Shown: piece by piece, positions 5,678 through 44,196 of the stretch
Layout of the letters: every line of letters starts with the position of its first letter
Position numbering within the stretch: position 1 is the first letter of the stretch
Assembly (NCBI GenBank): GCA_024653825.1
Contig: JANLHF010000001.1
Coordinates: forward strand, 62-64,061
DNA length: 64,000 nt
Direction of reading: 5' to 3'
Source of the DNA: Patescibacteria group bacterium
GTDB lineage: Bacteria; Patescibacteriota; Minisyncoccia; Phycocordibacterales; Phycocordibacteraceae
Notes under the pieces: generated by a model
Database searches by the model: none
What the model saw: only the letters and a program-made list of their open reading frames with translations
What the model was told of the DNA's origin: nothing
Program-made: the position numbers and the translations under genes

Positions 5678-5709
5678 ACGGTATCGTAAAAATGGTATTC
5701 TCGCACTAA

Positions 5710-5780: not shown

Positions 5781-5830
5781 CAAAATAGTTCCAGACTGAT
5801 AGCACCGGTCCGATTCCGGTATCCCGCACA
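5781..5830 (+). other. tRNA 3'-half-like fragment (T-arm plus acceptor 3' strand only)
   Basis: ACCGG-TCCGATT-CCGGT followed by ATCCCGC-A-CAA parallels the 3' end of the adjacent tRNA-Gly, GGTCCGAcTCCcGccgTCCgCAcaa. No matching 5' half is present. Confidence 0.4.
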
Positions 5831-5877
5831 ACGACAAAAAAGAGGATTGAAATAACCGCCACAGCTGATATGCTGGC

Positions 5878-27354: not shown

Positions 27355-28851
27355 ATGAGCATCCTTGTCGCAGTGGTTGCAGGGTTCGCGAGCGGGATTT
27401 CTCTCCGCTCGCTTTTTTATTTCGACTGGGAACCGGTGGTGTTTGTTTTGATGATGGCGGCGCTGATTGGCGCGTTTGCTTTTATGAAGCCGCGGCGAGC
27501 ATACACGCTCGGTGCGGTGTTTTTTATTTTTGTCGCGCTCGGGATGGGGAGGTCAGCGATCGCAGACACGCCCGCGCCGGAAGCGTTTACGCGTGACCTG
27601 AAGCATCGTGTCTCCTACGACGCCGTCGTCGTGGGAGACCCCGACATCCGCGAGAAGAGTCAGCGAATTGCTGTTGAAGTTATTTCAGGAGAAGACAAAG
27701 TGGGAATGCTCGCCGTGATGCCGCTCTCGGCGAGAGTGGCAGTGGGCGACCGCGTGCGCGTGTACGGCACACTCTCCCTCCCACAAGCATTTGAGACAGA
27801 CGGCGGACGCACCTTCCGCTACGACAAATACCTTCAGGCGCGAAATGTCCGCTTCCTCCTTCAGTTCGGGACGATATACACGCGAGAACCGGCACCGTGG
27901 TATTCCGTCCCCGCTGCGCTCGCACACATGAAGCACACATTCTTAGACGGACTCAACCGTGCGTTACCAAACCCGCCAGCGGCGCTCGCGGGCGGCATCG
28001 TGATAGGAGGGAAGCAGGGGCTCGGCACCGAGCTCCAAGACGCCTTCACACGCTCGGGACTCGTACAGATAATTGTGCTCTCCGGATACAACGTGATGAT
28101 AGTGGCCGAATGGGTGATGGCATTCCTCGCCCTTCTTCTCTTGCCACGCCGGCTCCAGTACTTCGCCGGCGGGGCGGCGCTTCTCTTGTTCGTCGGCATC
28201 GCCGGTATCTCTGCCACCGCCGTGCGCGCCGCGATCATGGCGGTCATCGCGCTCTACGCGCGCGCGACCGGCCGCTCTTATGCCGCGAGCCGTGCACTGC
28301 TCTTCACCGTCTTCTTGATGATTGTGTGGAATCCTCTCTATTTATGCTTTGACCCCGGCTTCGGACTCTCCGTCGCCGCGACCGCGGGCATCATCTGGCT
28401 CTCGCCAATCATCGAAGCGCGCCTCACTCGCTTGCGGCCCTTTTTAAAAAACGCCGTGGCGACGACGCTCGCTGCACAAATTTCAGTATTACCGCTCCTT
28501 CTCTACAACATCGGGCTCTTCTCGCTCGTCGCCCTACCAGCAAATCTTCTCGTCAATCCGCTCATGCCACTCGCGATGGCTTCGGCCGCTATCGCAGGCG
28601 TCGTCGGCATGACCATCGGACCTTTCGTCCCGATTATCGCGACCATTGTCGGCTATCCCGCCCTCATCCTCATGCGCTATCTTATTTTTATTGCAGAAAA
28701 AAGTTCCGCACTGCCGTATGCGGCGTTCACGATTGCCCGTTTCCCATTTTTACTCGTCCTCGCCGCTTACGTGGCGCTCGTCTGGGTAGTCGCTTCAAAA
28801 CGCTTCTCAACGACAGACCAATTCAAGTTCGCCAAGAAGGCGTCCACATAA
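27355..28851 (+). CDS. comEC: ComEC/Rec2 family competence (DNA internalization) channel protein
   Basis: 498 aa polytopic protein with DUF4131-like N-terminal and competence domains. Confidence 0.8.
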   Translation: MSILVAVVAGFASGISLRSLFYFDWEPVVFVLMMAALIGAFAFMKPRRAYTLGAVFFIFVALGMGRSAIADTPAPEAFTRDLKHRVSYDAVVVGDPDIREKSQRIAVEVISGEDKVGMLAVMPLSARVAVGDRVRVYGTLSLPQAFETDGGRTFRYDKYLQARNVRFLLQFGTIYTREPAPWYSVPAALAHMKHTFLDGLNRALPNPPAALAGGIVIGGKQGLGTELQDAFTRSGLVQIIVLSGYNVMIVAEWVMAFLALLLLPRRLQYFAGGAALLLFVGIAGISATAVRAAIMAVIALYARATGRSYAASRALLFTVFLMIVWNPLYLCFDPGFGLSVAATAGIIWLSPIIEARLTRLRPFLKNAVATTLAAQISVLPLLLYNIGLFSLVALPANLLVNPLMPLAMASAAIAGVVGMTIGPFVPIIATIVGYPALILMRYLIFIAEKSSALPYAAFTIARFPFLLVLAAYVALVWVVASKRFSTTDQFKFAKKAST

Positions 28852-29369
28852 TTCTTCTTCTCCGCTGGCACATAGTCCACCATAAAGGCGTGCTCCCAGA
28901 GGTCGAGCGCAAGGATGATGGGACAGCCAGCGAGCTGTCCGAGTTCGTGATCGTTTACAAAGACGGTGTGCAAAGTATTCGCATCTTTATAGACGACGGC
29001 CCAGCCAATACCTCTGCTCCCAGCAACTTCCTTTATATGCGCGATGAAGTTCTCGCCACTGCCGTACTTCTCTGCCGCCGCTTTCGCGAGCGCGCTTTCT
29101 GTGTTCATTTCGCTACTTCCTTCCTCCAGTTGCTCAAAATAGTATTCGTGCATGCGCATACCATCAAACTCAAAAGCGAAACGTCGGCGGAGTTCGGTGA
29201 TGAGATAGGCGTTTCCTTCGGCATCTGCTTCTTTGAGCGTTTTAATCTTCTCCATAATTAAATTCACGTGCTTCACGTAGCCCTCATACAATCCAAGATG
29301 CACTTTGATCTGTTTCTCCGACAATCCCGTGAGGGAAGGGAGGTTAAATGTTTTTGCTGTGTAGGTCAT
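28767..29369 (-). CDS. sodA: Fe/Mn superoxide dismutase
   Basis: C-terminal DLWEHAFMVDY and the N-terminal helical hairpin are present. The start is set at MTYTAKTFNLP. The 3' end overlaps comEC convergently. Confidence 0.85.
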   Translation of the reverse strand: MTYTAKTFNLPSLTGLSEKQIKVHLGLYEGYVKHVNLIMEKIKTLKEADAEGNAYLITELRRRFAFEFDGMRMHEYYFEQLEEGSSEMNTESALAKAAAEKYGSGENFIAHIKEVAGSRGIGWAVVYKDANTLHTVFVNDHELGQLAGCPIILALDLWEHAFMVDYVPAEKKNYVDAFLANLNWSVVEKRFEATTQTSAT

Positions 29370-29448
29370 AGCAGAATAATAGCAGAGGAGGGGACGGCCG
29401 GAAAATAAAAAACGCCGTTTCCTTTTCAGGGCGTGCGCTTTCTGTCGA

Positions 29449-29772
29449 TCAGAGCTTGCGTGAAGATATCGCAGCTCCGCGCTCACGAAATTCGGTGCCC
29501 GATATCCGGACCACCTGCACACCGGCAAGCGAACCGGCCTCAACGCCGGTATTGATGGAATAACCATCCACATCAACCAGGCGCCGCACGAGCAGGTCGA
29601 ACTTCCCGCCGAAGAGCTCCACCAACCGACGCGGACGGAGCTTTACCTCCACCTGCCACACACTCTTGATGGATTCTCCAAGGGGGTGGGCCTTGAGATC
29701 CCCAAGGAAAAAACCCCCGACTGCCTGATATCCCCTCGAATCCGTAACCGGCCTCGCGGTAACCTTCATCAT
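29449..29772 (-). CDS. Hypothetical protein (possible PRC-barrel-like)
   Basis: 107-aa ORF with weak resemblance only. Confidence 0.4.
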   Translation of the reverse strand: MMKVTARPVTDSRGYQAVGGFFLGDLKAHPLGESIKSVWQVEVKLRPRRLVELFGGKFDLLVRRLVDVDGYSINTGVEAGSLAGVQVVRISGTEFRERGAAISSRKL

Positions 29773-29856
29773 CCGTCTCCTCTCTCCATAAACAAACCTG
29801 CCTAAAAATATACAGGCGTATTAATATTTGTCAATTCTCGCCGACGCTCTTTCTTT

Positions 29857-29901
29857 GTTAGATAGCTCCCGCTTTCTTGAGCGCGGCGAAGGCGCCGTTC
29901 T
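29857..29901. repeat. 45-bp exact duplicate of the rpmB 3' end (stop codon plus last ~13 codons)
   Basis: ttagatagctcccgctttcttgagcgcggcgaaggcgccgttct is identical to 31883-31927. Confidence 0.85.
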
Positions 29902-29917
29902 CCTGTCGAAGACAAAA

Positions 29918-29950
29918 GAAAGCGCCCTTCGGGGCGCTTCAAAAAATACA
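29918..29950 (-). terminator. Rho-independent terminator for the small-peptide operon
   Basis: On the minus strand: AAGCGCCCcgaaGGGCGCTT followed by TCTTTTGTCTT. Confidence 0.5.
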
Positions 29951-30074
29951 CATAGAAGCGTGTAGCCTACGGCTGCCTTCTACTTATGGCCCCACAGTTG
30001 TGACAGCGCCACGTCCATTCACAGTTCCAAACCACAAACTCCCACTTGTGGTCGCAACCATCGACCCGATAGTT

Positions 30075-30161
30075 TTATTTTTTCTTGCTTAAGCCACACT
30101 TGAAACATCTGTCATAACCACCACTCCAAATCCAGTCGTGCTCACAATCAAATTGTGCCAT
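30075..30161 (-). CDS. 28-aa Cys-rich zinc-ribbon-like peptide
   Basis: MAQFDCEHDWIWSGGYDRCFKCGLSKKK. A strong AAAGGAGA SD lies 7 nt upstream. A degenerate second copy, CDHKWEFVVWNCEWTWRCHNCG, follows without a start codon. Confidence 0.5.
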   Translation of the reverse strand: MAQFDCEHDWIWSGGYDRCFKCGLSKKK

Positions 30162-30165
30162 GTCC

Positions 30166-30549
30166 TTATCTCCTTTCTGATTTTCTTCTAGTCCCACTAT
30201 TTGTGTCTTTTGTCCGTGGAACCAAGAGCTTCATCTCCGGCGGAAGTGTAAATACCGCACGAACGATCTCTTTCTTTTCATATGGTCCTGAATAGGAGTG
30301 TCCCGAAATCCAACCCGAAATATCTCGATGATAGATGACCACGGTTGGATTACTCTTTGAGGGAGCATCTTTAATCTCGATGATTCTGAGAGGAATTTCC
30401 ATGGACACCGCCGTGCCATTCTTATTTTTTCTTTTTGGAAATCCTAAGACATGGATGAGGGCGGGCTTGTCGGAAAAGACCCCGCGTTGTCCCGGCTCAA
30501 ACAAGACATCTCGTATATCGAACTCCTCTTTCCACTTATGCTCTTCCAT
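30166..30549 (-). CDS. Hypothetical protein
   Basis: 127 aa, upstream of and co-oriented with the Cys-rich peptide. Confidence 0.5.
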   Translation of the reverse strand: MEEHKWKEEFDIRDVLFEPGQRGVFSDKPALIHVLGFPKRKNKNGTAVSMEIPLRIIEIKDAPSKSNPTVVIYHRDISGWISGHSYSGPYEKKEIVRAVFTLPPEMKLLVPRTKDTNSGTRRKSERR

Positions 30550-30745
30550 AAATTCTCCTTGGAGGGATCCTCTTCCCTTACTGATTAAACAACGGATTCA
30601 GTCGCGCGGTCAAAGATTTTGTAAAATCTGTTATATTTCTTAGTTATGATATGAGCCAAAATATCCTTATTTTACTTAGCATTATTGACAATAATATAGT
30701 TGTCTGATACTGTTGTTATAATTTACAACAAAACAGAGAAAAGAT

Positions 30746-31483
30746 ATGGATAACCGCATCAACAAAGTTCTGGAGCGTTTTGGCCTCACCGAGCAGGAAA
30801 CCTCCCTCTATCTGGCGTCTCTGTCGCTTGGTGAGGCCGATATGACAACCCTGACGAAGAAGGCGGGGGTGAACCGGAGCACCGGCTATCTTTTATTCAA
30901 GAACCTGGAGAAAAAAGGGCTCCTTGGTAGCTTCGTCATGCGCAAAAAGTTGCGCGTTGTACCCGCGCAGCCGGAACTTCTCTATTCTCGTGCACAAAAT
31001 GACCTCGGAGACCTTCAATCTCTTATACCAGAACTTAAGGCGTTGTCCGAGAAGGAGGATGGCCGGCCTAAAATCCGTTATTATTCGGGAAGGGAAGGAT
31101 ATATCACGGCTCTTGAAGAATCTCTACAGAAACCGAATTCTACTCTGCGACATATTGGCTCAATTAGCGAAGCACACGAGGTGTATAAGGAATACGACAT
31201 GAAGCATTTTATGCCGACCCGTATCAAGAGAAATATTCTAATAAAATCCCTCTATTCCCCTTCATTCAGTGAGGAATTAAAAACCCGCAGCCATACAAAG
31301 GAGTTGCGTGAGATAAAATATTTGCCGGAAGAATTTCACGCGAATACTGCAAAACTGATTTGCGACGATAAAGTTATCCTTACCAGTAGTAAAAAGGAGT
31401 TGGTTGCAGTGGTTATCGAAAGCAGCGACATCGCGGAAAGCGAGCGTCAGTACTTCGACCTTATCTGGGGCTTAACTAAATAG
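30746..31483 (+). CDS. TrmB-family-like HTH transcriptional regulator
   Basis: The N-terminal LGLTEQETSLYLASLSLGEADMTTLTKKAGVNRSTGYLLFKNLEKKGLL matches the TrmB wHTH pattern. Confidence 0.62.
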   Translation: MDNRINKVLERFGLTEQETSLYLASLSLGEADMTTLTKKAGVNRSTGYLLFKNLEKKGLLGSFVMRKKLRVVPAQPELLYSRAQNDLGDLQSLIPELKALSEKEDGRPKIRYYSGREGYITALEESLQKPNSTLRHIGSISEAHEVYKEYDMKHFMPTRIKRNILIKSLYSPSFSEELKTRSHTKELREIKYLPEEFHANTAKLICDDKVILTSSKKELVAVVIESSDIAESERQYFDLIWGLTK

Positions 31484-31562
31484 TCCCGCGCCGTCAGTCG
31501 TATATTGAGTGGTCTCCGACCTGCGGAAGAATTCTGGCGTGAACCCGACGGTTATCATACCG

Positions 31563-31781
31563 TCAGCATTTCTTTATCAATTCACGCGGGTTACCGTACA
31601 ACACCTTTCCTTCTCTCGCTTCTTGGAGGGAGCGCTGAAGCGACGAGAAGGCCGTCTCGCCAGCAAGTGCATCAATCCCGAGACGCACCGCGTGTGCCTT
31701 ATTCGCCGCCCGCCCGCTCTTCACGAGAGCCTTGATAAATTTCTCCTGCACTGGCGTGATGGGGACTGAAATAGTAGTCAT
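31563..31781 (-). CDS. Ribbon-helix-helix (ParD/CopG-like) antitoxin-like protein, orphan
   Basis: 72 aa. The N-terminal MTTISVPITPVQEKFIKALVKSGRA has an RHH beta-strand plus helix pattern. No adjacent toxin gene was found. Confidence 0.45.
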   Translation of the reverse strand: MTTISVPITPVQEKFIKALVKSGRAANKAHAVRLGIDALAGETAFSSLQRSLQEAREGKVLYGNPRELIKKC

Positions 31782-31885
31782 ATGATTTTATAATATCGAA
31801 TATGAATATATCATACACCCTGTTTGTGGGTAGGCAAGCAAAAACCGCCCTAGGGCGGTTTTTGCTTGCTCGCAAGTATTTCCGA

Positions 31886-32128
31886 TTAGATAGCTCCCGC
31901 TTTCTTGAGCGCGGCGAAGGCGCCGTTCTTCTTGATAGTTTTGAGACCTTTTACAGAAACGTCCACGATGACGGTCTTCTTGAGTTCAGCGACGTAGATA
32001 CGGCGCTTCTGGAGGTTGGCCTTACGGCGGACCTTCCCGGTCGGGTTAAATTGCGTCGCGCGGGTACGATTGGAGTACCGTCCGCCGATTTGCGTACTTT
32101 TTCCGGTGATTTCGCAGGCTCGTGCCAT
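31886..32128 (-). CDS. rpmB: 50S ribosomal protein L28
   Basis: MARACEITGK ... RRKANLQKRR is a typical bL28 sequence. Confidence 0.9.
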   Translation of the reverse strand: MARACEITGKSTQIGGRYSNRTRATQFNPTGKVRRKANLQKRRIYVAELKKTVIVDVSVKGLKTIKKNGAFAALKKAGAI

Positions 32129-32168
32129 AGTCGTCGCATGGTACCATTAAGCTTCTAAACCAGCAAAT

Positions 32169-32804
32169 ATGGAAGCAATCCTATCTCTCATCGTCCTTAT
32201 CCTCTCGGTCATAGCCCACGAGGTGGCTCACGGCTACGCCGCCAATACGCTTGGGGACCCGACCGCTCGCCTCGCCGGACGCCTCACCCTTAATCCACTC
32301 CCACACATTGACCTGATGGGCTCGATCGTTCTCCCCGCACTCCTCATCTTCACCCATTCTCCTATCTTATTCGGCTGGGCGAAGCCGGTACCCTACAATC
32401 CCTATAATTTGAAGGCGCGTCGCTGGGGTGAGGCTCTTGTTGCTCTCGCGGGAAGTGCGACAAACATTCTGCTCGCCGTTATCTTCGGCCTTATCGTGCG
32501 CTACGCTACAACCATCGGTCTCGACCAGACCGCGATTTCCTTCGCGGCGACTATTGCCTTCATAAACCTGTTCCTTGGTCTCTTTAATCTCATTCCGTTC
32601 CCTCCGCTTGACGGGTTCACCGCGCTGCGCGCTGCACTCCCATGGCATCTTTCCTCGGGACTCAGTCGTTTTGAACATAAGGTAAGAAACGCCGGCGTCC
32701 TTTCGCTTCTCCTCTTCCTTATTGTGTTTTCCTACGTTTTCGCCGGGCCGTTTTTCAATCTCGTCCTCTGGCTTTTTGGGCTTTTGGCCGGTGCGAGCAT
32801 ATAA
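32169..32804 (+). CDS. Site-2 protease family (M50) membrane metalloprotease
   Basis: HEVAHG (HExxH) lies in the first TM region, followed by LNPLPH. 211 aa. Confidence 0.8.
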   Translation: MEAILSLIVLILSVIAHEVAHGYAANTLGDPTARLAGRLTLNPLPHIDLMGSIVLPALLIFTHSPILFGWAKPVPYNPYNLKARRWGEALVALAGSATNILLAVIFGLIVRYATTIGLDQTAISFAATIAFINLFLGLFNLIPFPPLDGFTALRAALPWHLSSGLSRFEHKVRNAGVLSLLLFLIVFSYVFAGPFFNLVLWLFGLLAGASI

Positions 32805-33129
32805 AAAGATGAGGCCGGTGTGGCCTCGTAGTTACTATCCGTCTTCAATCCATATCAATTTCGGGCCACCGACTGCTTTTTGTCCCTGGCGAACACGGAA
32901 AACGGTGACGGTAAAACGTAATTCCGAAAACGTCTCTCCTCTCGCTATACCCACCATGCCCGAGAAGTATGGTTTCTCTGCATTCTTCACATCGTACTTC
33001 AGTACCCTCTAGAGAGGGTCCACCTATCGAACCCATAATCCCCTCCTACAGAGACAAAGACCATTTCGTACATACTCCAGTGTACACCCATATTATTTTA
33101 GATGGTAAACGACTGGTATACTGTCAGAG

Positions 33130-33573
33130 ATGGAATATCAAGTGCCACAGTTCATTGAGGTGGAGGACAAGATCGTCGGACCTCTGACTCTAAAGCAATT
33201 CATTTATATTGCCGGCGCGAGTGGCATCTGTATCATCTTTTTCTTTTATCTACAGATGCTCTTCGCCATACTGCTCTCCCTTCCGGTGGTTGCCTTCGCC
33301 GCCGCTCTCGCCTTTTATAAAGTGAACGGAAAACCTTTTGTTGAGGTTATCGAGGCGGGCTTCAACTATTACACCGGCGCGAAGCTTTTCCTCTGGAAGC
33401 ATAGAGAGTCGACGATTCCTGAACAAAAGAGCGCGGCGGCGGCGGCGAAGGCAGAAGCGGCAGCTCCGGTTCCACGAGGCACTCCCAAACTTACGAGAGG
33501 GAAGCTCTCGGAACTTGCGTGGTCACTTGACGTAAAGGCGATGGGCAATAATTCGAATACCCCCACCCCCTAA
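33130..33573 (+). CDS. PrgI/VirB3-like small membrane protein
   Basis: MEYQVPQFIEVEDKIVGPLTLKQFIYI is followed by two TM helices. It lies immediately upstream of a VirB4-like ATPase, the classic VirB3-VirB4 synteny. Confidence 0.62.
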   Translation: MEYQVPQFIEVEDKIVGPLTLKQFIYIAGASGICIIFFFYLQMLFAILLSLPVVAFAAALAFYKVNGKPFVEVIEAGFNYYTGAKLFLWKHRESTIPEQKSAAAAAKAEAAAPVPRGTPKLTRGKLSELAWSLDVKAMGNNSNTPTP

Positions 33574-33574
33574 T

Positions 33575-34210
33575 ATGGCAACAAAAGTGTCCGGCGCGAC
33601 TCAACAATTCGTCCCCGTAAAAGAAATACGGAACGGCGTTATTGTGCTTAAAGACGGTGGATATCGCGGTATCCTTATCTGTTCCTCAGTCAATTTCGGA
33701 TTGAAGTCAGCCGATGAACAGCACGCCATCACTCTCGGCTTCCAAAATTTCCTTAACACGCTCGATTTTTCAATTCAAATCGTCGTGAATTCGCGCAAGA
33801 TGGACCTGCGCCCCTACCTCGCACTTCTTGAGGAGAAGGCCCCTGCACAAAGAACAGAACTTATGCGGATTCAGTTGCGAGAATATGTAGAATTCGTTCG
33901 CTCGTTCACCGATCAGGCAAATATTATGACGAAGTCGTTCTATATCGTCGTGCCCTATGCCCCCCACTCCTCTGCCGCTGGTGCGATGAGTTTTCTGCGC
34001 CACGAAAGCGCCACGACCAAGAACACCGCCGCAGAGACCTCCTTCGAGGAGAACCGCGCGCAGCTTGAACAGCGTCTAACCCTCGTTGCGAGCAGTCTCT
34101 CCGGCACCGGCGTGCGCGCGATTCCGCTCGGCACCGAAGAGATTATTGAACTCTTGTACCGTTCCTTCAATCCGGGCGAGCTCGAGAACCCTATCCGTCT
34201 CGACCAATAA
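33575..34210 (+). CDS. VirB4/TraC-like N-terminal domain protein (split from ATPase)
   Basis: 211 aa. It ends 2 nt before the ATPase ORF, in a different reading frame. Confidence 0.5.
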   Translation: MATKVSGATQQFVPVKEIRNGVIVLKDGGYRGILICSSVNFGLKSADEQHAITLGFQNFLNTLDFSIQIVVNSRKMDLRPYLALLEEKAPAQRTELMRIQLREYVEFVRSFTDQANIMTKSFYIVVPYAPHSSAAGAMSFLRHESATTKNTAAETSFEENRAQLEQRLTLVASSLSGTGVRAIPLGTEEIIELLYRSFNPGELENPIRLDQ

Positions 34211-34212
34211 GT

Positions 34213-36036
34213 ATGGCTCTCCTCGACTTTTTAAAGCGGAAGAATGAATCGGAACAAAGCACGACTATTATGCCAGTGCTTCCCAAAGATATTTATAAAC
34301 AAGGGTCACTCGACCTTGTGGACACTATCGCACCAACCGCACTTAAGATTGGTTCGCGCGAATTAGAACTCGGAGAAAAGTTCGTCCGCTCGTTCTATAC
34401 GATTTCCTACCCGCGATTCCTTTCAGACAGCTGGTTCTCCCCGGTTATCAACCTTGATAAAGTGCTCGACGCTTCCATCTTCATCCATCCGGTTGAGACC
34501 GAGGCCGCTCTGCGCGGATTCCAGAAGAAGGTTGCTGAAGTTCAGAGCCAAATCAATGAGCGCGAAGCAAAGGGTCTTGTGCGCGACCCTCTCCTTGATA
34601 CCGCCTATCAAGATCTCGAGAGCCTTCGCGACAGCCTTCAACAAGCACAGGAGAAACTATTTGATGTGGGGCTCTACCTGTCTCTGTACGGCGATTCAAA
34701 AGAAGAAATTGATAAGACTGAGGGCGATATCCGCGGAATTCTTGACGCGAAGCTCGTCTATACGAAGCCGGCGCTTTTTCAGCAGGAACAAGGATTCCGT
34801 TCCTGCCTCCCGCTTGGCACCGACGAACTTCTGGTAAATTCAAAATTGAACTCGTCGCCATTATCTTCAATCTTCCCCTTTGTTTCTTTTGACCTGACGA
34901 GCGATCGGGGAATTTTGTATGGAATAAACAGACACAACTCTTCACTCATTCTCTTCGATCGTTTCTCGCTTGAGAACTACAATTCTGTTGTCTTCGCGAA
35001 GTCAGGCTCCGGAAAGAGTTATGCAACGAAGCTTGAAATACTCCGCTCACTTATGTTCGGCACGGACGTCATCGTCATCGACCCCGAACGCGAGTATGAA
35101 CAGCTCGCGGAGGCGACCGGTGGGAGGTCTTTCCATATATCACTCTCTTCTGAGCATCACATCAACCCATTCGATCTGCCACCAGTGAAGGATGATGAAG
35201 ATCCGAAAGACATTCTCCGTTCCAACATCATCGCGCTTGTTGGACTTTTCCGCATCATGCTCTCAGGTCTCTCGCCTGAAGAGGACGCCATTGTTGACCG
35301 CGCCATCAGCGAGACCTACGCGCTCAAAGATATCACCGGCGATGCCGACTTCACCGGCGCCGAACCGCCGCTCCTCTCAGATTTTGAGCAGGTACTCGCC
35401 GGTATGGAGGGGAGTGAGTCGCTCGTCGAGCGTCTCTCGAAGTATACCCGCGGTACGTGGGCCGGATTTCTTAATCAGCCGACCAATATAGATTTCAAAC
35501 AGCAGTTCGCGGTCTTCTCTGTGCGTGATATGGAAGACGAACTTAAGCCGGTCGCGATGTACATCATCACACACTACATATGGAATGCGGTCCGCCACGA
35601 AATGAAAAAGCGCCTTCTTATTATCGATGAGGCCTGGTGGATGATGAAGAGCGATGACACCGCATCATTCCTTTATTCGGTCGCCAAGCGCGGACGCAAA
35701 TATTATCTTGGAGTCTGTACTATCACCCAGGACGTTGAAGACTTCCTCAAGAGTCCATACGGGAGACCCATTCTCACGAACTCCTCTATACAGTTGTTGT
35801 TGAAACAGTCGCCAACGACAATCGACGTGCTTCAAAAAACATTTAATCTCACCGATGAAGAAAAATATCTGCTGCTCGAGGCCGGGGTGGGGGAGGGGCT
35901 CTTCTTCGCCGGACTGAAGCATGTCGCAATTAAAGTTGTCGCGAGCTATACCGAGGATCAGATCATCACCTCCGACCCGTCGCAACTTCTCGCGATAAAG
36001 GAGGGCAAGGCCCGTCATGCCGCCGAACAAAAATAG
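34213..36036 (+). CDS. VirB4/TraC/TrbE-like conjugative-type ATPase
   Basis: Walker A FAKSGSGKSY, Walker B LLIIDEAW, and a C-terminal VirB4-type fold are present. 607 aa. Confidence 0.8.
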   Translation: MALLDFLKRKNESEQSTTIMPVLPKDIYKQGSLDLVDTIAPTALKIGSRELELGEKFVRSFYTISYPRFLSDSWFSPVINLDKVLDASIFIHPVETEAALRGFQKKVAEVQSQINEREAKGLVRDPLLDTAYQDLESLRDSLQQAQEKLFDVGLYLSLYGDSKEEIDKTEGDIRGILDAKLVYTKPALFQQEQGFRSCLPLGTDELLVNSKLNSSPLSSIFPFVSFDLTSDRGILYGINRHNSSLILFDRFSLENYNSVVFAKSGSGKSYATKLEILRSLMFGTDVIVIDPEREYEQLAEATGGRSFHISLSSEHHINPFDLPPVKDDEDPKDILRSNIIALVGLFRIMLSGLSPEEDAIVDRAISETYALKDITGDADFTGAEPPLLSDFEQVLAGMEGSESLVERLSKYTRGTWAGFLNQPTNIDFKQQFAVFSVRDMEDELKPVAMYIITHYIWNAVRHEMKKRLLIIDEAWWMMKSDDTASFLYSVAKRGRKYYLGVCTITQDVEDFLKSPYGRPILTNSSIQLLLKQSPTTIDVLQKTFNLTDEEKYLLLEAGVGEGLFFAGLKHVAIKVVASYTEDQIITSDPSQLLAIKEGKARHAAEQK

Positions 36037-37789
36037 TCCTCAACCGAAGGTGATGACGTGGCCGCGGGCGTGGCCGATGATCATCGGCACCGCCGTTTTT
36101 GATCTTGTCCGCGCCTTTTTCCAATTTTTTTGGTTCTTCGGGCCAGCGTTGGGAGCCATTGTCTGTACTGCTGGGGTAAACACCGCTGTCGGGGCGAGTA
36201 TTTCTGGTGTGGTGGGGAAGGTGGTCGCAACTGGCTGTAGTGGGGCTGCGGTCGTCCTCGGTTCTGTCTTTTCTGAAAGCACCACTGTATTTGGAGTCAT
36301 TGTGGCAGATGCCCTCGGTCTGTTCGGTTTTCTTGCTCTTAAGATGTGGATGTATTCAAATGCCCGTAGACGCAAAGTGCTTAAAGAGATGTGGCTCTTA
36401 CAAATGGGAAGTTTTATGGGAAGTCTTATCCCTTTCATTGGAGCATTTCCTTTTTATTCATTCGTCCTTTTCTTCACCTATAAACACCAAATAAAAATTG
36501 AGAAGGCAGATTACAAAAAATGGGAGAAGGAAACGGAGAATGCTCGGCTTCAACAACAGAATCAACAGGCGGCACGGGTTGCGCAGATACAGGCCGCGCA
36601 GCAGACGCGGGTCGAACAGGAACAAATTGTGCAACAAGAAACGGTGGAAGAAGAATCAAATAGAGAGGAAGAAATTTCTGTAGACGCTGATCCGACACCA
36701 ATCCAATATCAACCAGTCGCACGACCTGAGAAAAAACGGTGGTCTCCTGATAGTGGCGTCCCGCCGCCAATGACACCCGAGTATGGATGGCGAACGACTC
36801 CTCCTCCACTTCCTCAACCATTTTCTATACCTCCTCCATTGCCGACGATGACGCCCCCGCCTCTTCCGACGTCAGCACGTATGACCCCTCCACCATTACC
36901 GCCTACGTTACCTATTCCAAGCGTTTCAGGAATGAAAGAACGCTCAATGATAAGTTCGGATGAGAGATCAGTCGAGCAGGTGGCGTTGCGCAATAACGCG
37001 TTCATTGTCCATACTATTGCAGAAAGTGGGCAGGCTCAGCACCACAATGAAAACTCGAACGTATCTGGGAAAGCCACGTACGGAGACGATATGGACATTA
37101 TGTTGGCATTTGAACCATCGGTTTCTGCCTCGTCGGTTACCCCCAGTAAAAAAGCACAGCTGTGGACTGGGGACGGATTTTTGCTCGGAGGTGGCCAAAT
37201 TAGCGAAGCGGGAGGTAGCGACCAAGGAACTATCGCTCACGGAATCAAAAAACGCGGAAACAGAATGTCTTCACTTGAAGAAATTGACAATGTCATTGGC
37301 CGAAATAGCGAACTACATCAGAGTGACTACGAACGCGTTGGAACGTTCGGAATGAACGAGATCGTTGTGAACAATTCGGAGGTATTTGGATACTTTCAGC
37401 AAGCAGGAAAAGACAAAGACGGACATTATTGGATGCTCTCCACTGAAACGAAGAAAGACTCCGAGATGGCAAAAAAGATGCGCAAGTATGGGGAAACGTC
37501 ATTCGACAAGAATATGGAAAATTATCGCCGACGTTTTGCTACTGCTCAAGAACGCGGTATCCCCTTGTATATAATGACCCCCGACCGCGAGGTGTATGAA
37601 TATCGCGGGGTCAACGACGACGGAACCGTTGAAGTTGGAAAACAATTAACGCCAGAGGAGGTCGCTAGGGGTCGGGCAGGATTATCCACAGAGAAGAGAA
37701 AAGAAATTGGTGAAAAATTACTTGAAAAGAAAATCTTTAGGGGAGAAAAGACGCAGAAGGAGGCTGAAGAAATTATAAAATCACTTTGA
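36017..37789 (+). CDS. Polytopic membrane protein with a Pro-rich repeat linker and C-terminal globular domain (possible VirB6/TrbL-like)
   Basis: Four or five N-terminal TM helices, a Gln-rich coiled segment, and a proline-rich linker containing four TPPPLP repeats. It overlaps the VirB4 stop by 20 nt. Confidence 0.5.
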   Translation: MPPNKNSPQPKVMTWPRAWPMIIGTAVFDLVRAFFQFFWFFGPALGAIVCTAGVNTAVGASISGVVGKVVATGCSGAAVVLGSVFSESTTVFGVIVADALGLFGFLALKMWMYSNARRRKVLKEMWLLQMGSFMGSLIPFIGAFPFYSFVLFFTYKHQIKIEKADYKKWEKETENARLQQQNQQAARVAQIQAAQQTRVEQEQIVQQETVEEESNREEEISVDADPTPIQYQPVARPEKKRWSPDSGVPPPMTPEYGWRTTPPPLPQPFSIPPPLPTMTPPPLPTSARMTPPPLPPTLPIPSVSGMKERSMISSDERSVEQVALRNNAFIVHTIAESGQAQHHNENSNVSGKATYGDDMDIMLAFEPSVSASSVTPSKKAQLWTGDGFLLGGGQISEAGGSDQGTIAHGIKKRGNRMSSLEEIDNVIGRNSELHQSDYERVGTFGMNEIVVNNSEVFGYFQQAGKDKDGHYWMLSTETKKDSEMAKKMRKYGETSFDKNMENYRRRFATAQERGIPLYIMTPDREVYEYRGVNDDGTVEVGKQLTPEEVARGRAGLSTEKRKEIGEKLLEKKIFRGEKTQKEAEEIIKSL

Positions 37790-37865
37790 TAGAGACCCGA
37801 GGAGATACAAAGAGTTTCGCCACAGTATCCACTGGACATGATATAGCCAATTTGCTATACTGCGT

Positions 37866-38213
37866 TTGGAGCGGCTGTTGATATACCGACGCCCAATGGA
37901 ACAGTATCGCGAAGTACACCTCCTAGATTCCGCAAAAGAATATATTGACGGTGTTTCGATACCCGATCAAGCAACTATCGCCGCGCACGTTGCGTGTATG
38001 CGCTCGGGAGACTTCGAGTCGGTTCGTACTAAACAGTTGCGCGGCTCCATCCGAGAATTGATCGTCGGACATCATCGCATAACCTACTTTGAATTTGACT
38101 CGGCCCTATATTTTGTGAGGGGATTCAGGAAGAAAACTCCCAAAGCACCGAAGTCAGAAATCGACTATGCGGAGAAGGTATATAAAATAATAAGGAACTC
38201 AATAAAATTATGA
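37866..38213 (+). CDS. HigB/Gp49-like RelE-fold toxin
   Basis: 115 aa. Toxin-upstream, antitoxin-downstream order with an XRE partner. Basic C-terminus. Confidence 0.65.
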   Translation: MERLLIYRRPMEQYREVHLLDSAKEYIDGVSIPDQATIAAHVACMRSGDFESVRTKQLRGSIRELIVGHHRITYFEFDSALYFVRGFRKKTPKAPKSEIDYAEKVYKIIRNSIKL

Positions 38214-38503
38214 AAAAGAAACAACAAAATCTCCAGTGGCACTCCTTCGATGAGGTGTTCAGTAGGAGTTCAAAAAAGAAGGAGTTCCGCCTCGCATATA
38301 ACGAGGAAATTGTACGCCTACGGCTCGCTCGGCAGATTCGTAATCTTCGCACGACTAGTCAAATGACTCAACTGATAGTGGCGAAAAAATCGGGCATGCC
38401 ACAGTCCGTGATTGCTAGGGTTGAGAGTGGCGATCGCGGTATCTCTGTAGATACGCTTGGTCGAATCGCCCACACACTCGGCAAGGAAGTGCAGTTGGTG
38501 TGA
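38210..38503 (+). CDS. XRE-family HTH antitoxin (HigA-like)
   Basis: The HTH QMTQLIVAKKSGMPQSVIARVESGDRGISVDTLGRIAHTLG is present. 4-nt overlap with the toxin gene. Confidence 0.7.
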   Translation: MKKKQQNLQWHSFDEVFSRSSKKKEFRLAYNEEIVRLRLARQIRNLRTTSQMTQLIVAKKSGMPQSVIARVESGDRGISVDTLGRIAHTLGKEVQLV

Positions 38504-38537
38504 CCTCATTGCCTCGCGCAGGCGCTATACTAGAAGT

Positions 38538-39536
38538 ATGCGTTTGGGACTTTTTACGACCTTTCTTTCTATCCTTCTGCTCCCCGTAGCCGCTTCGGCA
38601 CAATCTCTGGGCGGGATAGGGGACGCGAGCGGCGGTTCATTTACTGTTTCGGTAGCTCCACAATTTCCAGTCCCTTACAGCACAGCGACATTGTCGTTTC
38701 TCTCTTCATCAATCGACCTCGCTAACGCGACGATAACAGTTACGGCTGATGGGAAGAAGATCTATCAGGGCAGTTCCCAGCCGGTATCTCTACCGCTTGG
38801 TGGAGCGGGATCCTCTGTAGACATTTCAGTAGCGGCCGTTACTAATGAATCCACTTATACACAGTATCTTTCTATCCAGCCACAAGATGTTGCCCTTGTC
38901 GCGGAACCTCTTTCCTCAGCGCCACCTCTCTACCTAGGAAAACCGTCAGTGCCCCCCGAGGGAAGCGTCCGCGTCGTCGCGATGGCAAATCTAAGAAGTG
39001 CGGGCGGGGGATCGCTCAACCCAACGGCACTTTCATATATTTGGACGGTCGATGGAGCCCAGATTGCGAACTCTTCAGGAATCGGCAAGGCAGCAATCAT
39101 CGTCGCCTCTCCCCTCCAATATCGCGCCCGCACTGTCGCTGTGTCGGTGACAAGCCAAGATGGATCTCTTGTAGGCGGCGCCAACCTCTCACTCTCTGTG
39201 TCTGAGCCCCTGATACGCGTCTACGAAAATGATCCTCTGCTTGGTATTCGGTTTGAAAAGGCCCTGAGCGGTACGTATACCATCAAGGGGACCGAATCAA
39301 CCCTATACGCCGCTCCTTTCTCTTTTGCGACGTCTGGCGGCCCCCCCCTTCTTCAATGGCTTCTGAATGGGGGGGTGGCGCAAACAGGTTCTTTAATCAC
39401 CTTGCGTCCCTCGGGTGGCGGACAAGGGAGGGCTTCGCTCTCGCTCATCGCATCCGAAGGACAGTTCACAACAATAACGACAAATCTTTCACTCTCTTTT
39501 GGTAACACCCCGAGCCCTAACTTCTTCGGCCTATGA
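38538..39536 (+). CDS. Secreted S/T/A-rich beta-rich protein
   Basis: Signal peptide MRLGLFTTFLSILLLPVAASAQS. 332 aa. Confidence 0.5.
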   Translation: MRLGLFTTFLSILLLPVAASAQSLGGIGDASGGSFTVSVAPQFPVPYSTATLSFLSSSIDLANATITVTADGKKIYQGSSQPVSLPLGGAGSSVDISVAAVTNESTYTQYLSIQPQDVALVAEPLSSAPPLYLGKPSVPPEGSVRVVAMANLRSAGGGSLNPTALSYIWTVDGAQIANSSGIGKAAIIVASPLQYRARTVAVSVTSQDGSLVGGANLSLSVSEPLIRVYENDPLLGIRFEKALSGTYTIKGTESTLYAAPFSFATSGGPPLLQWLLNGGVAQTGSLITLRPSGGGQGRASLSLIASEGQFTTITTNLSLSFGNTPSPNFFGL

Positions 39537-40264
39537 AAAAATTCCTTATTTTAATAGCAGTCTCATTTATCTCCTTTGTCCCGCTCGCTCTTGCTCAAAC
39601 ACAGAGCGGATTCATCCCACTCGCCCCAATCCCCGGTCTTACTGACCAGAGTCTGACCAGCGCAGTGAACTCAGACACGCTCGCAAACTTCTTTAATAAT
39701 CTTTATAAATATCTCATCGGGCTCGCTGCGGCAATCGCCGTTATCCAGATTATCTGGGCAGGGCTCGACATCGCCTTCTTCCATAAGGACGCGGTGAGCG
39801 CTATCACCGATGATAAAGGAAAAATATACAACGCCATCTATGGTCTTATCCTCATCCTGTCCCCGGTGCTCGTCTTCTCCATCATTAATCCTAATATCCT
39901 GAACCTCTCGATCGGTCTTCCGGAACTCGACACTGTATCTGGTCCTCCGATTCAACAAAACACAACAACGGTCACTCCTTATATACAACAATCGGTCAGA
40001 CCTGGGAGCACGCGAGCGATCTATAATGGCCAGCTTATCGGTTTCCAAGAAGGTCCCGCGACCACTCCCCAAGCAAGTACTTGGTGCTATCCTCTTGCTT
40101 CTCCTCAGACAAATACCGATCCGGCGCTGAACGGCGGACAACCATACCAAGCGACGGTTTTTTGCGCGCGAGACTCAGGGGGATGCAGATCTTTTATGAA
40201 TGGAAGTTCCGGAACACCATGGGTACCAGCAACAGGTGCCCAGTGTATTCTCACTCCTCCATAA
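39533..40264 (+). CDS. Signal-peptide protein with TM hairpin, VirB2/TrbC pilin-like candidate
   Basis: Signal peptide, then LANFFNNLYKYLIGLAAAIAVIQIIWAGLDIAF and a second helix. The topology resembles T4SS pilins. Confidence 0.4.
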   Translation: MKKFLILIAVSFISFVPLALAQTQSGFIPLAPIPGLTDQSLTSAVNSDTLANFFNNLYKYLIGLAAAIAVIQIIWAGLDIAFFHKDAVSAITDDKGKIYNAIYGLILILSPVLVFSIINPNILNLSIGLPELDTVSGPPIQQNTTTVTPYIQQSVRPGSTRAIYNGQLIGFQEGPATTPQASTWCYPLASPQTNTDPALNGGQPYQATVFCARDSGGCRSFMNGSSGTPWVPATGAQCILTPP

Positions 40265-40265
40265 T

Positions 40266-41465
40266 ATGCGTCAAAAACTAATCATTGCTGCAGCTGCGAT
40301 AGTCATCCTCGGGATTGGCGCCGCTGTCTACTTTCTCTTCTTCACCGGCTCCGCAACAGTGACCACTGTTCCGGGAACAACCTCTGGCCTACCTATGTCC
40401 GGCCCGGAAACATCTCTACCTGGAGAAACAACGTCGACGACCACATCTCTCGTGCTGGGATCGCCGATATCTGTTGGGGCTCGGTTGGTGAAGATTGCCG
40501 CAGGGCCGATAGTTCCGGGAGAAATAATCGTGAACAAGGAAGGCACGGCGAGTACCTCTCCCGAATCTACGGTCAGTTATATCGAACGCCAGAGCGGTAA
40601 TGTGTATGCCTACAGCACCCTCACAAAGGCGATAACGCGTATCTCGAACAAGACTGTCCCAGGTATCCAGTCTGCCGTATGGCTCCCCGATGCGTCGACC
40701 GCATTCGTCCGGTATCTCTCGGGAACAGATTTTTCAACCCTTAACACCTATGCGCTCCCCGTAAGTGGTTCCGGTGGATTTTTCCTCTCCCAAAATCTGT
40801 CCGACATCAGCGTTTCTTCCGCGAACATTCTCACCCTCGCCTCGGGCGTCAACGGCTCCAGTGTCTCCCTTGCGCGTACTGATGGATCACACTCATCATC
40901 GGTATTTACAACCCCTCTCTCCTCCCTCCGTATCTCGTTCGTGGGAAAGTCACAATATCTTGTCTTTACCAAGCCCTCCGCGACGCTCATGGGCAACGCC
41001 TTCCTTGTAGATGGTGCGGGGCGTTTCTCGCGCATCGCGGGCCCTCTCACCGGCCTTGTTGCTCTCGCGAGCCCTCTCGGGAAGTGGGTGCTGATAAGTT
41101 ACACCTTGGGGAATGCAATGCAGTTGAAACTAGTGAATGTCGCAACGAAAGAATCCGTCGCCCTCCCGATCGCGACCATCGCCGACAAGTGTGTGTGGGC
41201 ACAAAACGACTCTTCAGTGTATTGCGGCATACCAATGAATCCTTCTGGTTCAAACTACCCTGATGACTGGTATCAAGGGGCAATACATTTCTCGGACCGT
41301 ATTTGGAAAATAGAAGTGGCGAGCCGTTACGCACAACTCATTCTTGATTTTACAGCAGAAACGAAAGACGCTCTTGATGCCGAAGCCCTCTCTATTGATG
41401 CATCTCTAACTACCCTTGTGTTTGTGAATAAAAATGATGGCTCACTCTGGAGCTACTCTTTGTAA
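40266..41465 (+). CDS. Membrane-anchored periplasmic beta-propeller-like protein
   Basis: N-terminal TM helix, then repeated beta-rich segments. 399 aa. Confidence 0.45.
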   Translation: MRQKLIIAAAAIVILGIGAAVYFLFFTGSATVTTVPGTTSGLPMSGPETSLPGETTSTTTSLVLGSPISVGARLVKIAAGPIVPGEIIVNKEGTASTSPESTVSYIERQSGNVYAYSTLTKAITRISNKTVPGIQSAVWLPDASTAFVRYLSGTDFSTLNTYALPVSGSGGFFLSQNLSDISVSSANILTLASGVNGSSVSLARTDGSHSSSVFTTPLSSLRISFVGKSQYLVFTKPSATLMGNAFLVDGAGRFSRIAGPLTGLVALASPLGKWVLISYTLGNAMQLKLVNVATKESVALPIATIADKCVWAQNDSSVYCGIPMNPSGSNYPDDWYQGAIHFSDRIWKIEVASRYAQLILDFTAETKDALDAEALSIDASLTTLVFVNKNDGSLWSYSL

Positions 41466-42636: not shown

Positions 42637-42731
42637 GTAGAAAAGATTAGTTTATACACATGATATTAACAGGTTTTCCACGAAACGCCAACGTGCCTTG
42701 TTTATGGTATCAGCGTATACTCCAGAGTATT
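42637..42731. promoter_or_regulatory. Putative oriC segment / dnaA promoter region with DnaA-box-like sites
   Basis: TTATACACA (8/9) and TTTTCCACG (7/9) lie between rpmH and dnaA. A further CTATCCACA lies at 44099-44107, between dnaA and dnaN. Confidence 0.45.
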
Positions 42732-44084
42732 ATGGATAAGGGAAATCCTCGAGAGTTGTGGGAATACATTCTTACTCAAATCGAGCTTTCTATTTCTTCC
42801 GCAAATTTCAATACTTGGTTTCGAAATAGCTTCATAGTAAAAATAGGAGAGGACGGGGTTATCTACATCGGGGTGCCGAGCCAATTTTTTAAAGATTGGT
42901 ACCTAAAGAAATTTCATTCTCTTCTTTTGAAGATTGCCCGTGATGTTTCGTATGAGTTCCGTAATATTGAATATCTTATTGTAAAGGATGAACACCGTAA
43001 GATTCAGAAAGAAACGAAGAATGTGCGTGGTGTAATGGAACTCCCTCTTGATGAATTCTATATCAACAAAAGTGATAGTCTAAATCCGCGCTACACCTTC
43101 GATACGTTCGTTATTGGTTCTTTTAATACTCTTGCGCACACTGCCGCTCAAGCAGCGCTTGCACGACCTGGTATCACCTATAATCCTCTCTTTGTGTATG
43201 GCGACACAGGAAGAGGGAAGACCCATCTTATTCAAGCGATTGGAAATCAGTTTAAGAAACAGTACCCTGGACGCAAAGTGTTTTATCTCACTTCAGAAAA
43301 ATTTGCTGTTGATTACACTGATTCGGTACAAGCGGGAACTGCAAATCGTTTCAAAGACAAATACCGTCAGTATGATCTTCTTATTATGGATGACGTTCAG
43401 TTCCTCTCTAAAAAAGATAAAACGCAAGAAGAACTCTTTCATCTCTTTAATACCCTCCACGATACAAATAAACAAATTATATTTTCCTCCGATCGTGCAC
43501 CTTCTGCTATTCCTGATATTGCTGAACGATTAAAAGGTCGTCTTGCAAGTGGTATGGCGGTCGATATTAGTGAACCTGATACTGAATCGCGTATGGCTAT
43601 CGTACAGAAAAAGGCTGCATCACATGGGATTATGCTTTCCCCAGAAGTTATCGAGTATGTCGCGACAGCAATGTCAGGCTCTATCCGAGAATTAGAAGGG
43701 ATGGTGAATAGTATTATTTGTCATGCTCAAGTAAAGGGGAGTGCACCTGATATTGCTGAGGTACGCCAATCACTTCGCTCTTTTACTCGACCTCAGAAAA
43801 ACATCTCTGTGAAGAATGTAGTTGATAAGGTCGCAGAATATTATGGTATTGATGAAGAAAGTATTTATGAGAAAACAAGAAGAAGAGAGGTAGTGCGTCC
43901 TCGACAAGTAATTATGTACCTCCTTAGAGAAGACTTTAGTATTTCATATCCTACAATAGGAACAAAACTTGGTGGTCGTGATCACACAACTGTTATTCAC
44001 TCGTGTGAGAAAATAAAGCGTGAAGTACTTGTGGACAATGATCTTTTAAAAGAGATCCAAAATATTAGATCTCTTCTTGTATGA
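42732..44084 (+). CDS. dnaA: Chromosomal replication initiator DnaA
   Basis: AAA+ Walker A GDTGRGKTHL, a sensor region, and a C-terminal DNA-binding helix-turn-helix. Confidence 0.93.
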   Translation: MDKGNPRELWEYILTQIELSISSANFNTWFRNSFIVKIGEDGVIYIGVPSQFFKDWYLKKFHSLLLKIARDVSYEFRNIEYLIVKDEHRKIQKETKNVRGVMELPLDEFYINKSDSLNPRYTFDTFVIGSFNTLAHTAAQAALARPGITYNPLFVYGDTGRGKTHLIQAIGNQFKKQYPGRKVFYLTSEKFAVDYTDSVQAGTANRFKDKYRQYDLLIMDDVQFLSKKDKTQEELFHLFNTLHDTNKQIIFSSDRAPSAIPDIAERLKGRLASGMAVDISEPDTESRMAIVQKKAASHGIMLSPEVIEYVATAMSGSIRELEGMVNSIICHAQVKGSAPDIAEVRQSLRSFTRPQKNISVKNVVDKVAEYYGIDEESIYEKTRRREVVRPRQVIMYLLREDFSISYPTIGTKLGGRDHTTVIHSCEKIKREVLVDNDLLKEIQNIRSLLV

Positions 44085-44196
44085 ACTTTATACTTACTCT
44101 ATCCACATATTCTGTTTTCTTGAATGAGGAAAATACACAATCACTATATAGTTCTTTCAGCCTATCCCCAGTGTTAACAGCCCTAATAGATGTTGT

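Follow-up and report, generated by a model that had tools for sequence, protein, structure and literature searches.

Repeated insertion of small gene cassettes at the 3' end of rpmB in Kaiserbacteria

How does a second copy of the end of a ribosomal protein gene come to lie about 2 kb from the gene itself, with a few small genes and no integrase in between? The question arises in a stretch of 64,000 nucleotides from a Patescibacteria group bacterium (contig JANLHF010000001.1; the whole stretch is called the window here), where the last codons of rpmB, the gene for ribosomal protein L28, recur on the far side of a short islet. DNA arriving at this locus brings an rpmB end of its own that takes over as the functional gene end, and the resident end is displaced downstream, where it persists as an orphan remnant beside the native flank. 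Such insertion has been repeated in Kaiserbacteria and took place twice in the window genome, leaving cassette 2 distal and cassette 1 proximal to rpmB; deletions later removed most of the toxin gene and most of the remnant from cassette 1. In addition, homologous recombination with a crossover in rpmB swaps downstream content between near-identical strains. Bacteria of the candidate phyla radiation (CPR, Patescibacteria) have tiny genomes with few recognisable mobile elements, and their gene gain is poorly understood. The rpmB locus offers a concrete, recurring and sequence-defined route, in which the conserved end of an essential gene serves as a landing pad and the scars are datable.

The duplicated gene end and the array behind it

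A 44-nt sequence, TTAGATAGCTCCCGCTTTCTTGAGCGCGGCGAAGGCGCCGTTCT, is present in exactly two exact copies in the window, and with one mismatch allowed the repeat extends to 47 nt (Table 1). Chance predicts no such pair: in 100 dinucleotide-preserving shuffles of the window not a single match turned up, although as many as three mismatches were tolerated. Identity between the copies breaks right at the stop codon, where position 29857 is g and position 31885 is a. The proximal copy (R) is the end of an intact rpmB, whose product is 74-99% identical to L28 of more than 150 related loci, and the distal copy (L) is an orphan. An earlier note, made from the letters of this DNA alone, had described a 45-bp exact repeat of the last ~13 codons and stop of rpmB; the duplication is confirmed and its coordinates were right within 1-2 nt, with the exact length corrected to 44. 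Between the copies the G+C content is 0.445 (29905-31475), below the 0.515-0.544 of the flanks.

The enclosed DNA had been taken for a single islet of ~2 kb. Judged from its sequence, it is an array of two cassettes split by a third, vestigial rpmB end rather than one insert, and the ~490 nt from the distal copy to the superoxide dismutase (SOD) gene, which hold ORF107, are lineage-specific as well. Along the minus strand from rpmB, the R copy is followed by a hairpin terminator, the operator and gene of the antitoxin RHH72, the remains of a toxin gene and the vestigial rpmB end. Beyond the vestige lie the TrmB-like regulator gene (antisense), a divergent promoter, hyp127, a 28-aa Cys-rich peptide gene, its start-less paralogue, a terminator and the L copy. 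The earlier gene list stands with three corrections: the second Cys-rich frame lacks a start and is probably a pseudogene, the antitoxin gene is followed by a deleted toxin gene, and a third rpmB end lies inside.

Table 1. Features of the rpmB-SOD region, in window coordinates
Feature	Position	Strand	Remark
rpmB, ribosomal protein L28, 80 aa, intact	31886..32128	-	Pfam PF00830 Ribosomal_L28, E 6e-12
Proximal copy (R), working last 13 codons and stop of rpmB	31886..31932	-	exact part 31886-31929
Perfect 18+18 nt hairpin and T-run, terminator after rpmB, left end of cassette 1	31834..31869	-	
RHH72, ParD-family ribbon-helix-helix antitoxin (cassette 1, TA-A)	31563..31781	-	NCBIfam TIGR02606, below cut-off
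Remains of RelE/YafQ-like partner toxin gene, intact length 86 aa	31494..31558	-	~190 nt deleted internally
Vestigial middle rpmB end, CGGCGC/GGGACTATTTAG	31476..31493	-	~24 nt deleted internally
TrmB-like HTH regulator, 245 aa (cassette 2)	30746..31483	+	Pfam PF01978, E 1.7e-9
AT-rich divergent promoter region	30550..30745		homology to L081 from 30607
hyp127, rare 127-aa protein (cassette 2)	30166..30549	-	without Pfam, NCBIfam or PADLOC match
28-aa Cys-rich peptide MAQFDCEHDWIWSGGYDRCFKCGLSKKK	30075..30161	-	listed 40-aa reading frame begins at upstream GTG
Paralogous Cys-rich reading frame (..GCDHKWEFVVWNCEWTWRCHNCG..)	29967..30062	-	without canonical start codon
Intrinsic-terminator-like hairpin, distal end of cassette 2	29919..29940	-	
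Distal copy (L), orphan rpmB end including stop codon, reads ...NGAFAALKKAGAI*	29858..29904	-	exact part 29858-29901
ORF107, lineage-specific, between distal copy and SOD (~490 nt stretch)	29449..29834	-	ORFan
Fe/Mn superoxide dismutase (SOD), conserved downstream neighbour	28767..29369	-	

Related loci, labelled here with L numbers, allow both cassettes to be delimited. In cassette 1, the first 13 toxin codons (MITVGFTPEFFRR) are joined out of frame to the last eight codons and stop (VGDHSIYD*), and the same gene is intact in L081, L083, L090 and L134. The antitoxin therefore looks orphan because an internal deletion removed most of the toxin gene. The vestige adjoins the toxin stop codon exactly as a full remnant does in L134 and L090, where GATTAA runs directly into AGAACGGCGCC... 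A hairpin homologous to the terminator after rpmB also stands 3' of rpmB in L090, which carries the same cassette, and the palindromic promoter/operator of RHH72 (~31782-31818) keeps its operator conserved.

For cassette 2 the informative relative is L081. It encodes the best TrmB homologue (91% identical), which abuts the true rpmB end there by an 8-nt convergent overlap; in the window the TrmB stop codon overlaps the vestigial rpmB end, and the 3' part of the vestige together with the TrmB end is homologous to that junction. RHH72 is present in L081 as well, with an intact 86-aa gene after it. Three L081 segments align to the window: 2295-3175 to 30607-31487 and 383-682 to 31519-31818 (both at ~84% identity), and 3162-3256 to 31884-31978 (~82%). 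Cassette 2 probably consists of a regulator and the small operon that it controls.

Recurrence in relatives and descent of the copies

A screen of 154 rpmB loci, drawn from 80 genome loci, 80 metagenome loci found via L28 and the contexts of RHH72 homologues, combined a C-terminal peptide search with a 45-nt nhmmer profile. The genome set holds one genome per species, was scanned with the neighbouring M50 peptidase and is labelled nearly throughout as Kaiserbacteria, Paceibacterota or other CPR metagenome-assembled genomes (MAGs). Around rpmB the gene order is conserved (ComEC > SOD < rpmB < / > M50 > PrgI > orf211 > VirB4). In the 124 loci where SOD lies downstream, rpmB and SOD are 11 to 3384 nt apart; the contents of this gap are unrelated between loci, a gene for an MBL-fold protein being the most common. 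In the closest relatives, only 27-110 nt separate the rpmB stop from SOD. The islet and the ORF107 segment have no DNA or translated match in the 80 syntenic loci, which makes the whole stretch 29372-31885 lineage-specific. The comparison with related genomes that the earlier note had called for thus supports its proposal of an insertion at the rpmB 3' end.

Nine distinct arrays, the window included, were found among the ~138 rpmB loci with enough downstream sequence (~6%). Toxin-antitoxin (TA) pairs form most of the ~12 cassettes in these arrays. A second pair, TA-B, occurs with one remnant each in L027, L028, L101 and L135, and L090 carries TA-A with one remnant behind the same terminator as the window. 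One remnant also accompanies the single 110-aa gene of L083. Two remnants each are present in L099, whose two cassettes hold a 237-aa and a 189-aa gene, and in L131 (= L134), where TA-A is followed by TA-B. Cassette units measure 0.4-1.6 kb and contain one to four genes. NCBI, ENA, JGI and Logan assemblies that are independent of one another show the same architecture.

Measured to the end of the stop codon, remnants are 41, 42, 44, 44, 45-46 and 48 nt long, with a maximum of 66 nt. TA-A ends in a remnant of 44-46 nt, and its junction is unchanged across L090, L134 and the window. The TA-B remnant is 57-66 nt in L028, L101 and L134 but shorter in L027 (42 nt); in L135 it measures at least 33 nt. 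Cassettes other than these two pairs have 41-48 nt. The most distal remnant and the DNA downstream of it reproduce the native arrangement of relatives with an empty site (L101_L against L092 and L012; L134_L2 against L112).

The differences between the copies reveal where they came from. In eight arrays, remnant and working copy differ at 76 positions, 54 synonymous and 22 non-synonymous, against a synonymous expectation of 26% for random substitutions (binomial p 1.7e-16). All eight differences of the L027 remnant are synonymous, and the in-frame stop is kept in every full-length remnant compared. This synonymous excess argues that the remnants derive from functional rpmB alleles and not from target-site duplications. 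Remnant and working copy are, on this comparison of substitutions, two functional rpmB alleles, one the recipient's and the other that of the incoming DNA.

Exchange at the locus is visible in relatives of the window genome. Between the sister strains L101 and L103 from Hainich groundwater, the first 1192 nt contain a single mismatch. The final 169 nt of rpmB then contain 38, chiefly at third codon positions, and the DNA downstream is different. The alignment marks this as a homologous-recombination breakpoint inside rpmB, beyond which the 3' part of the gene and the content of the gap have been swapped as a block. It is evidence from these relatives and not from the window genome itself.

Routes by which the cassettes may have arrived

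Mobility genes are scarce at this locus. No tyrosine or serine recombinase is encoded in any cassette of the nine arrays, none was found among the ~40 window reading frames of at least 150 aa that were scanned, and the islet reading frames contain neither a recombinase nor a relaxase domain. Reading by eye of the gap reading frames of at least 110 aa in the 80 genome-set loci likewise revealed no recombinase, only an IS30-type element in L040. IS30-type transposase genes in the rpmB-SOD gaps of L040 (4756-5607) and L135 (4839-5882) are the only mobility genes seen at the locus, and neither transposase nor Cas1 was detected in the cassettes or the window reading frames scanned. Phage, plasmid and viral collections gave no match to the islet (blastn of the islet against plasmids and phages; scans of viral contigs with hyp127 and RHH72). 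The earlier statement that no integrase remains is therefore borne out for the islet and the window reading frames scanned. Of the proposed attL/attR-style scar, the insertion holds, and the integrase it implies is missing from the eight further arrays too.

Several kinds of target site were considered and rejected. As single-stranded DNA, the rpmB-end site folds no better than shuffled sequence (z -0.3 to -1.5), which speaks against an attC-like site, and a dif/Xer site was discarded because rpmB lies only ~11 kb from dnaA (dnaA and dnaN, marking the replication-origin region, occupy 42660-45297). A scan of 29000-32400 against Rfam returned only sub-threshold chance matches. On the antisense strand of the rpmB end, a terminator-like hairpin, GCGGCGAAGGCGCCG, is followed by a T-run (31911-31926 on the plus strand, and again at 29883-29898), and the repeat boundary sits in this T-run. 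The hairpin would halt transcription converging on rpmB, from TrmB here and from the MBL gene in relatives. A retro-element origin was considered because of that boundary and dropped, as no reverse transcriptase was found and the cassettes have promoters on both strands.

An integrase-free origin, through DNA uptake, RecA exchange anchored in rpmB and an illegitimate join at the distal end, is the favoured reading, a proposal on which belief and doubt are evenly balanced. No dedicated integrase would take part. DNA would enter via the competence machinery, of which ComEC and type IV pilus genes (PilM, T2SSE/F) are encoded in the window together with RecJ, RuvABC and PolA. RecA recombination would use the conserved rpmB as left homology arm, and the illegitimate join at the far end of the foreign DNA would fall a few dozen bases short of the resident stop codon, as in homology-facilitated illegitimate recombination. 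Joins inside the gene end would be favoured among survivors, because the native spacer of 27-110 nt holds the SOD promoter. Once made, the remnant could act as a portable right-hand homology arm; any genome whose rpmB is similar could then receive the block of rpmB end, cassette and remnant, and the block could be lost again via recombination between the copies. It is further proposed that TA cargo is over-represented because TA pairs resist loss, and that the TA-A junction is constant in L090, L134 and the window because the remnant serves as a portable right arm.

The integrase-free model would account for the missing integrase, the donor-type gene end and the native-type remnant. It would also cover the cassette-specific remnant lengths, the many variable gaps that lack remnants and the L101/L103 breakpoint. 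If it is correct, it shows how competence together with a duplicated gene end can make a self-propagating cassette out of any small set of genes.

Several points weigh against this integrase-free route. Six of the eight junction types lie 41-48 nt before the stop end, beside a GC-rich palindrome (CGGCG-CCTT-CGCCG) that adjoins the clustered remnant boundaries, and a fixed crossover by a site-specific recombinase would explain this clustering more simply. Illegitimate joining would have to invoke a hot spot, or survivorship together with a detection limit. Several independent illegitimate joins are needed, because homologous recombination alone cannot make the first duplication, and the outer copies of the window, 100% identical over 44 nt, require a conspecific donor or gene conversion. 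The RecA gene is absent from the 64-kb window, natural transformation would have to be presumed for these organisms, and a right arm of 41-66 nt is near the lower limit for RecA-mediated exchange. The genome is represented by the 64-kb contig only, and a recombinase gene may lie elsewhere in it.

Such a recombinase could act in trans, using the last ~42 nt of rpmB as attachment site and inserting integrase-less cassettes that bear mimics of the rpmB end, the newest beside rpmB, much as an integron does or as Xer does with dif-flanked modules. This is unlikely, although it deserves serious attention. A direct repeat of the 3' end of a conserved gene that stops at the stop codon is the classical signature in excerpts of PMC5704250, and the remnant boundaries of six junction types at 41-48 nt, the tandem arrays of L099, L134 and the window, and the shared TA-A junction in different genomes all agree with it. 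However, the nine arrays and their immediate surroundings, the inspected gaps of the genome set and the window reading frames scanned yielded no recombinase, and remnant length varies by cassette family (44 against 57-66 nt). Folding of the site is not significant (z about -1.4), which means that it is not attC-like, its distance of ~11 kb from dnaA leaves no dif site, and the L101/L103 breakpoint lies 169 nt from the stop rather than at the site. The wider idea of an integron-like gene-capture platform in Kaiserbacteria, and perhaps in other CPR, where a trans-acting recombinase would stack miniature integrase-less cassettes at the rpmB end, is slightly less credible again; a trans recombinase, if real, would amount to a new cassette-capture system. 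Decay offers another way to remove the enzyme. Integrase-bearing elements could have been added serially at rpmB and then reduced to att sites, TA pairs and a few cargo genes, that is, to cis-mobilizable elements (CIMEs). This three-step route is known for arrays at streptococcal ribosomal protein gene ends, where TA pairs are common cargo (excerpts of PMC5704250), and deletions are evident here in the truncated toxin gene and middle remnant. It is nonetheless improbable: no intact or part-decayed integrase-bearing element appears in the genome-set gaps, the nine arrays or the ~12 cassettes, the phage, plasmid and viral collections hold no match, and minimal 0.6-kb TA cassettes recur with identical junctions, which random decay would not yield. 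A trans-acting recombinase or CIME decay would explain the clustering of boundaries, and both agree with the streptococcal precedent; both are weakened by the lack of a recombinase in anything inspected.

Two further readings are effectively excluded. The earlier note had offered a target duplication as an alternative to integration, and a long one, transposition-like or Cas1-like with staggered cuts ~44 nt apart, would suit the identical copies of the window with the insert exactly between them. The idea founders on the related arrays, whose copies differ mostly synonymously (54:22 where 26% is expected), beyond the neutral decay of a duplicated remnant; moreover, the duplication varies in length (41-66 nt), other loci carry the same TA pair without flanking duplication, and the cassettes and window reading frames scanned encode no transposase or Cas1. 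Its probability is very small, and that of an assembly artefact or chance repeat is smaller still. The contig does come from a MAG, but zero matches are expected by chance, independent NCBI, ENA, JGI and Logan assemblies share the architecture, and, module by module, the array aligns collinearly with L081, L083 and L090 across the junctions. The 44 nt of the repeat are also below the usual assembly k-mer length.

Whether the integrase-free origin or a trans-acting recombinase is correct, the remnants are easy markers of recently acquired genes in uncultured lineages, and they explain orphan antitoxins beside housekeeping genes.

Comparison with known systems helps to place these arrays. In streptococci, CIMEs, integrative and mobilizable elements (IMEs) and integrative and conjugative elements (ICEs) form accretion arrays at the 3' ends of rplL, rpmE, rpmG and rpsI (excerpts of PMC5704250). 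The rpmB arrays resemble them in their insertion at the 3' end of a ribosomal protein gene, in the repeat that keeps the gene intact, in tandem order with the newest unit beside the gene, and in units that lack an integrase and frequently carry TA cargo. Of the features of a CIME, the direct repeat, formed by the rpmB 3' end, and the absence of integration or transfer genes are present; descent from an ICE or IME that has an integrase and shares the target did not emerge from the 80 genome-set gaps and the nine arrays. Unlike the streptococcal elements, those at rpmB have no integrase-bearing parent in the loci inspected, their units of 0.4-1.6 kb are far smaller, the host belongs to the CPR, and site-specific recombination is only a candidate at a locus known from sequence. 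The integration targets given in the excerpts of PMC5704250 do not include rpmB, and full-text literature searches turned up neither a paper on integration at rpmB nor one on arrays of this kind in CPR.

The minimal mobile elements of Neisseria (Saunders & Snyder 2002; definition as quoted in an excerpt of PMC3787668) are similar in that variable genes lie between fixed conserved flanks without mobility genes. They are exchanged by transformation and homologous recombination in the flanks, to which the L101/L103 breakpoint in rpmB corresponds here. Measured against that definition (excerpt of PMC3787668), the rpmB units differ in ending with a copy of the rpmB end and in stacking into arrays. 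Both features of a minimal mobile element are found at rpmB, as variable rpmB-SOD content across the 124 loci and as flank recombination in the relatives L101 and L103.

The loci also invite comparison with two processes known elsewhere. In homology-facilitated illegitimate recombination, described for transformable Acinetobacter and S. pneumoniae, a one-sided homologous anchor is combined with an illegitimate join at short GC-rich microhomology. The process needs no enzymes from the element. Its expected products are a gene end of donor type and a remnant of recipient type, with join points that vary. To our knowledge the process has never been tested in CPR bacteria. At rpmB it would have to act repeatedly on the same stretch of ~8 nt. 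Integron arrays consist of small, mostly single-function cassettes in promoter-proximal stacks, with a recombination-site-like repeat closing each cassette and an enrichment of TA pairs. The rpmB arrays share the stacking of small cassettes, the repeat that ends each of them and the TA enrichment. Unlike integrons, they have no adjacent IntI, their repeat is a gene end rather than a folded attC, and their cassettes carry their own promoters and terminators. Upstream of rpmB an M50 peptidase gene stands in all loci, the window reading frames scanned include no recombinase, and an attC fold is absent.

Cargo genes and surroundings

The TA-A pair resembles type II ParD-ParE/RelE modules in its 72-aa ribbon-helix-helix protein, an 86-aa gene 4 nt on, and a palindromic operator overlapping the promoter, and it can be regarded as a putative module of this kind. 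Unlike typical type II systems, all its family matches fall below curated cut-offs, and the window toxin is deleted. RHH72 matches TIGR02606 with E 1.4e-5 and 25 bits (cut-off 46) and has no Pfam match, and the intact partner toxin of relatives matches TIGR02385 and TIGR00053 (RelE/StbE, YafQ) only weakly, with E 0.02-0.03. Searching PDB sequences with the toxin produced no meaningful match. RHH72 has 113 homologues at 51-96% identity, and the 86-aa gene follows 4 nt downstream in most contexts inspected. The toxin partner is degraded in L087 too.

This pair also occupies many unrelated housekeeping intergenic sites without flanking repeats. It lies between unrelated housekeeping genes at L086:5001-5484 (groES/secG), L169:6001-6484 (aminoacyl-tRNA synthetase gene/tatD) and L171:6001-6484 (rpsG-orf/fusA). 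A search for flanking direct repeats came back empty for L169 and L171 and gave no more than a weak 15-nt match at L086, and no mobility genes surround the pair at these three loci. Around the same pair, no duplication of an upstream gene end was found at L168, L169 and L171. The duplication is therefore specific to rpmB, since the same pair resides at other loci without it.

A different cassette array appears at L084:4200-5660 and L085:1837-2667. It contains promoter-like direct repeats of ~150 nt (TGCTACAAT...), mostly 85-100% identical and spaced 695-759 nt apart, with three copies in L084 and two seen in L085. Three units in L084 are set apart by these repeats: an 83-aa gene, the pair RHH72 (+tox86), and an operon of RNHCP/radical-SAM type.

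The cargo of cassette 2 is rarer. TrmB-like regulators of this type are mostly paired with a short-chain dehydrogenase, and the partner here is hyp127, which has ~5 small homologues among 1.84 billion representatives. PADLOC assigns the islet to no defence system, with the TrmB HTH weakly like CasR/Csa3. Exact-protein look-ups of L28 and TrmB returned nothing on record. ORF107, which takes the place of the 27-110 nt spacer of the closest relatives, has a near-consensus promoter (TTGACA-16-TATATT, 29807-29834). Its sole match among 5.8 billion proteins is itself (locus tag NUV60_00175), and its use as a probe for an empty site in the same species was dropped as it has no other homologue.

The wider neighbourhood shows further variation. 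Most Kaiserbacteria have a separate gene for an MBL-fold protein, similar to the ComEC C-terminus, that converges with rpmB (gaps of L003-L080). This gene is missing from the rpmB-SOD gap of the window and its closest relatives, and the window ComEC (27355-28851) has only Competence and DUF4131 domains. The M50-PrgI spacer (32805-33129 in the window) is a second hypervariable gap, which spans from ~30 nt to 5.8 kb in relatives and varies, for example, in L018, L026, L029, L037 and L040 (among L001-L049). Beyond it, a cluster resembling a type IV secretion system (33130-41465; PrgI, VirB4, TrbC-type pilin) is conserved and syntenic in relatives and is not an island. At the far side of the window, a predicted tRNA-Gly (tcc) at 5710-5781 lies inside a trypsin-like peptidase reading frame (4517-6034, minus strand), whose start is probably over-called.

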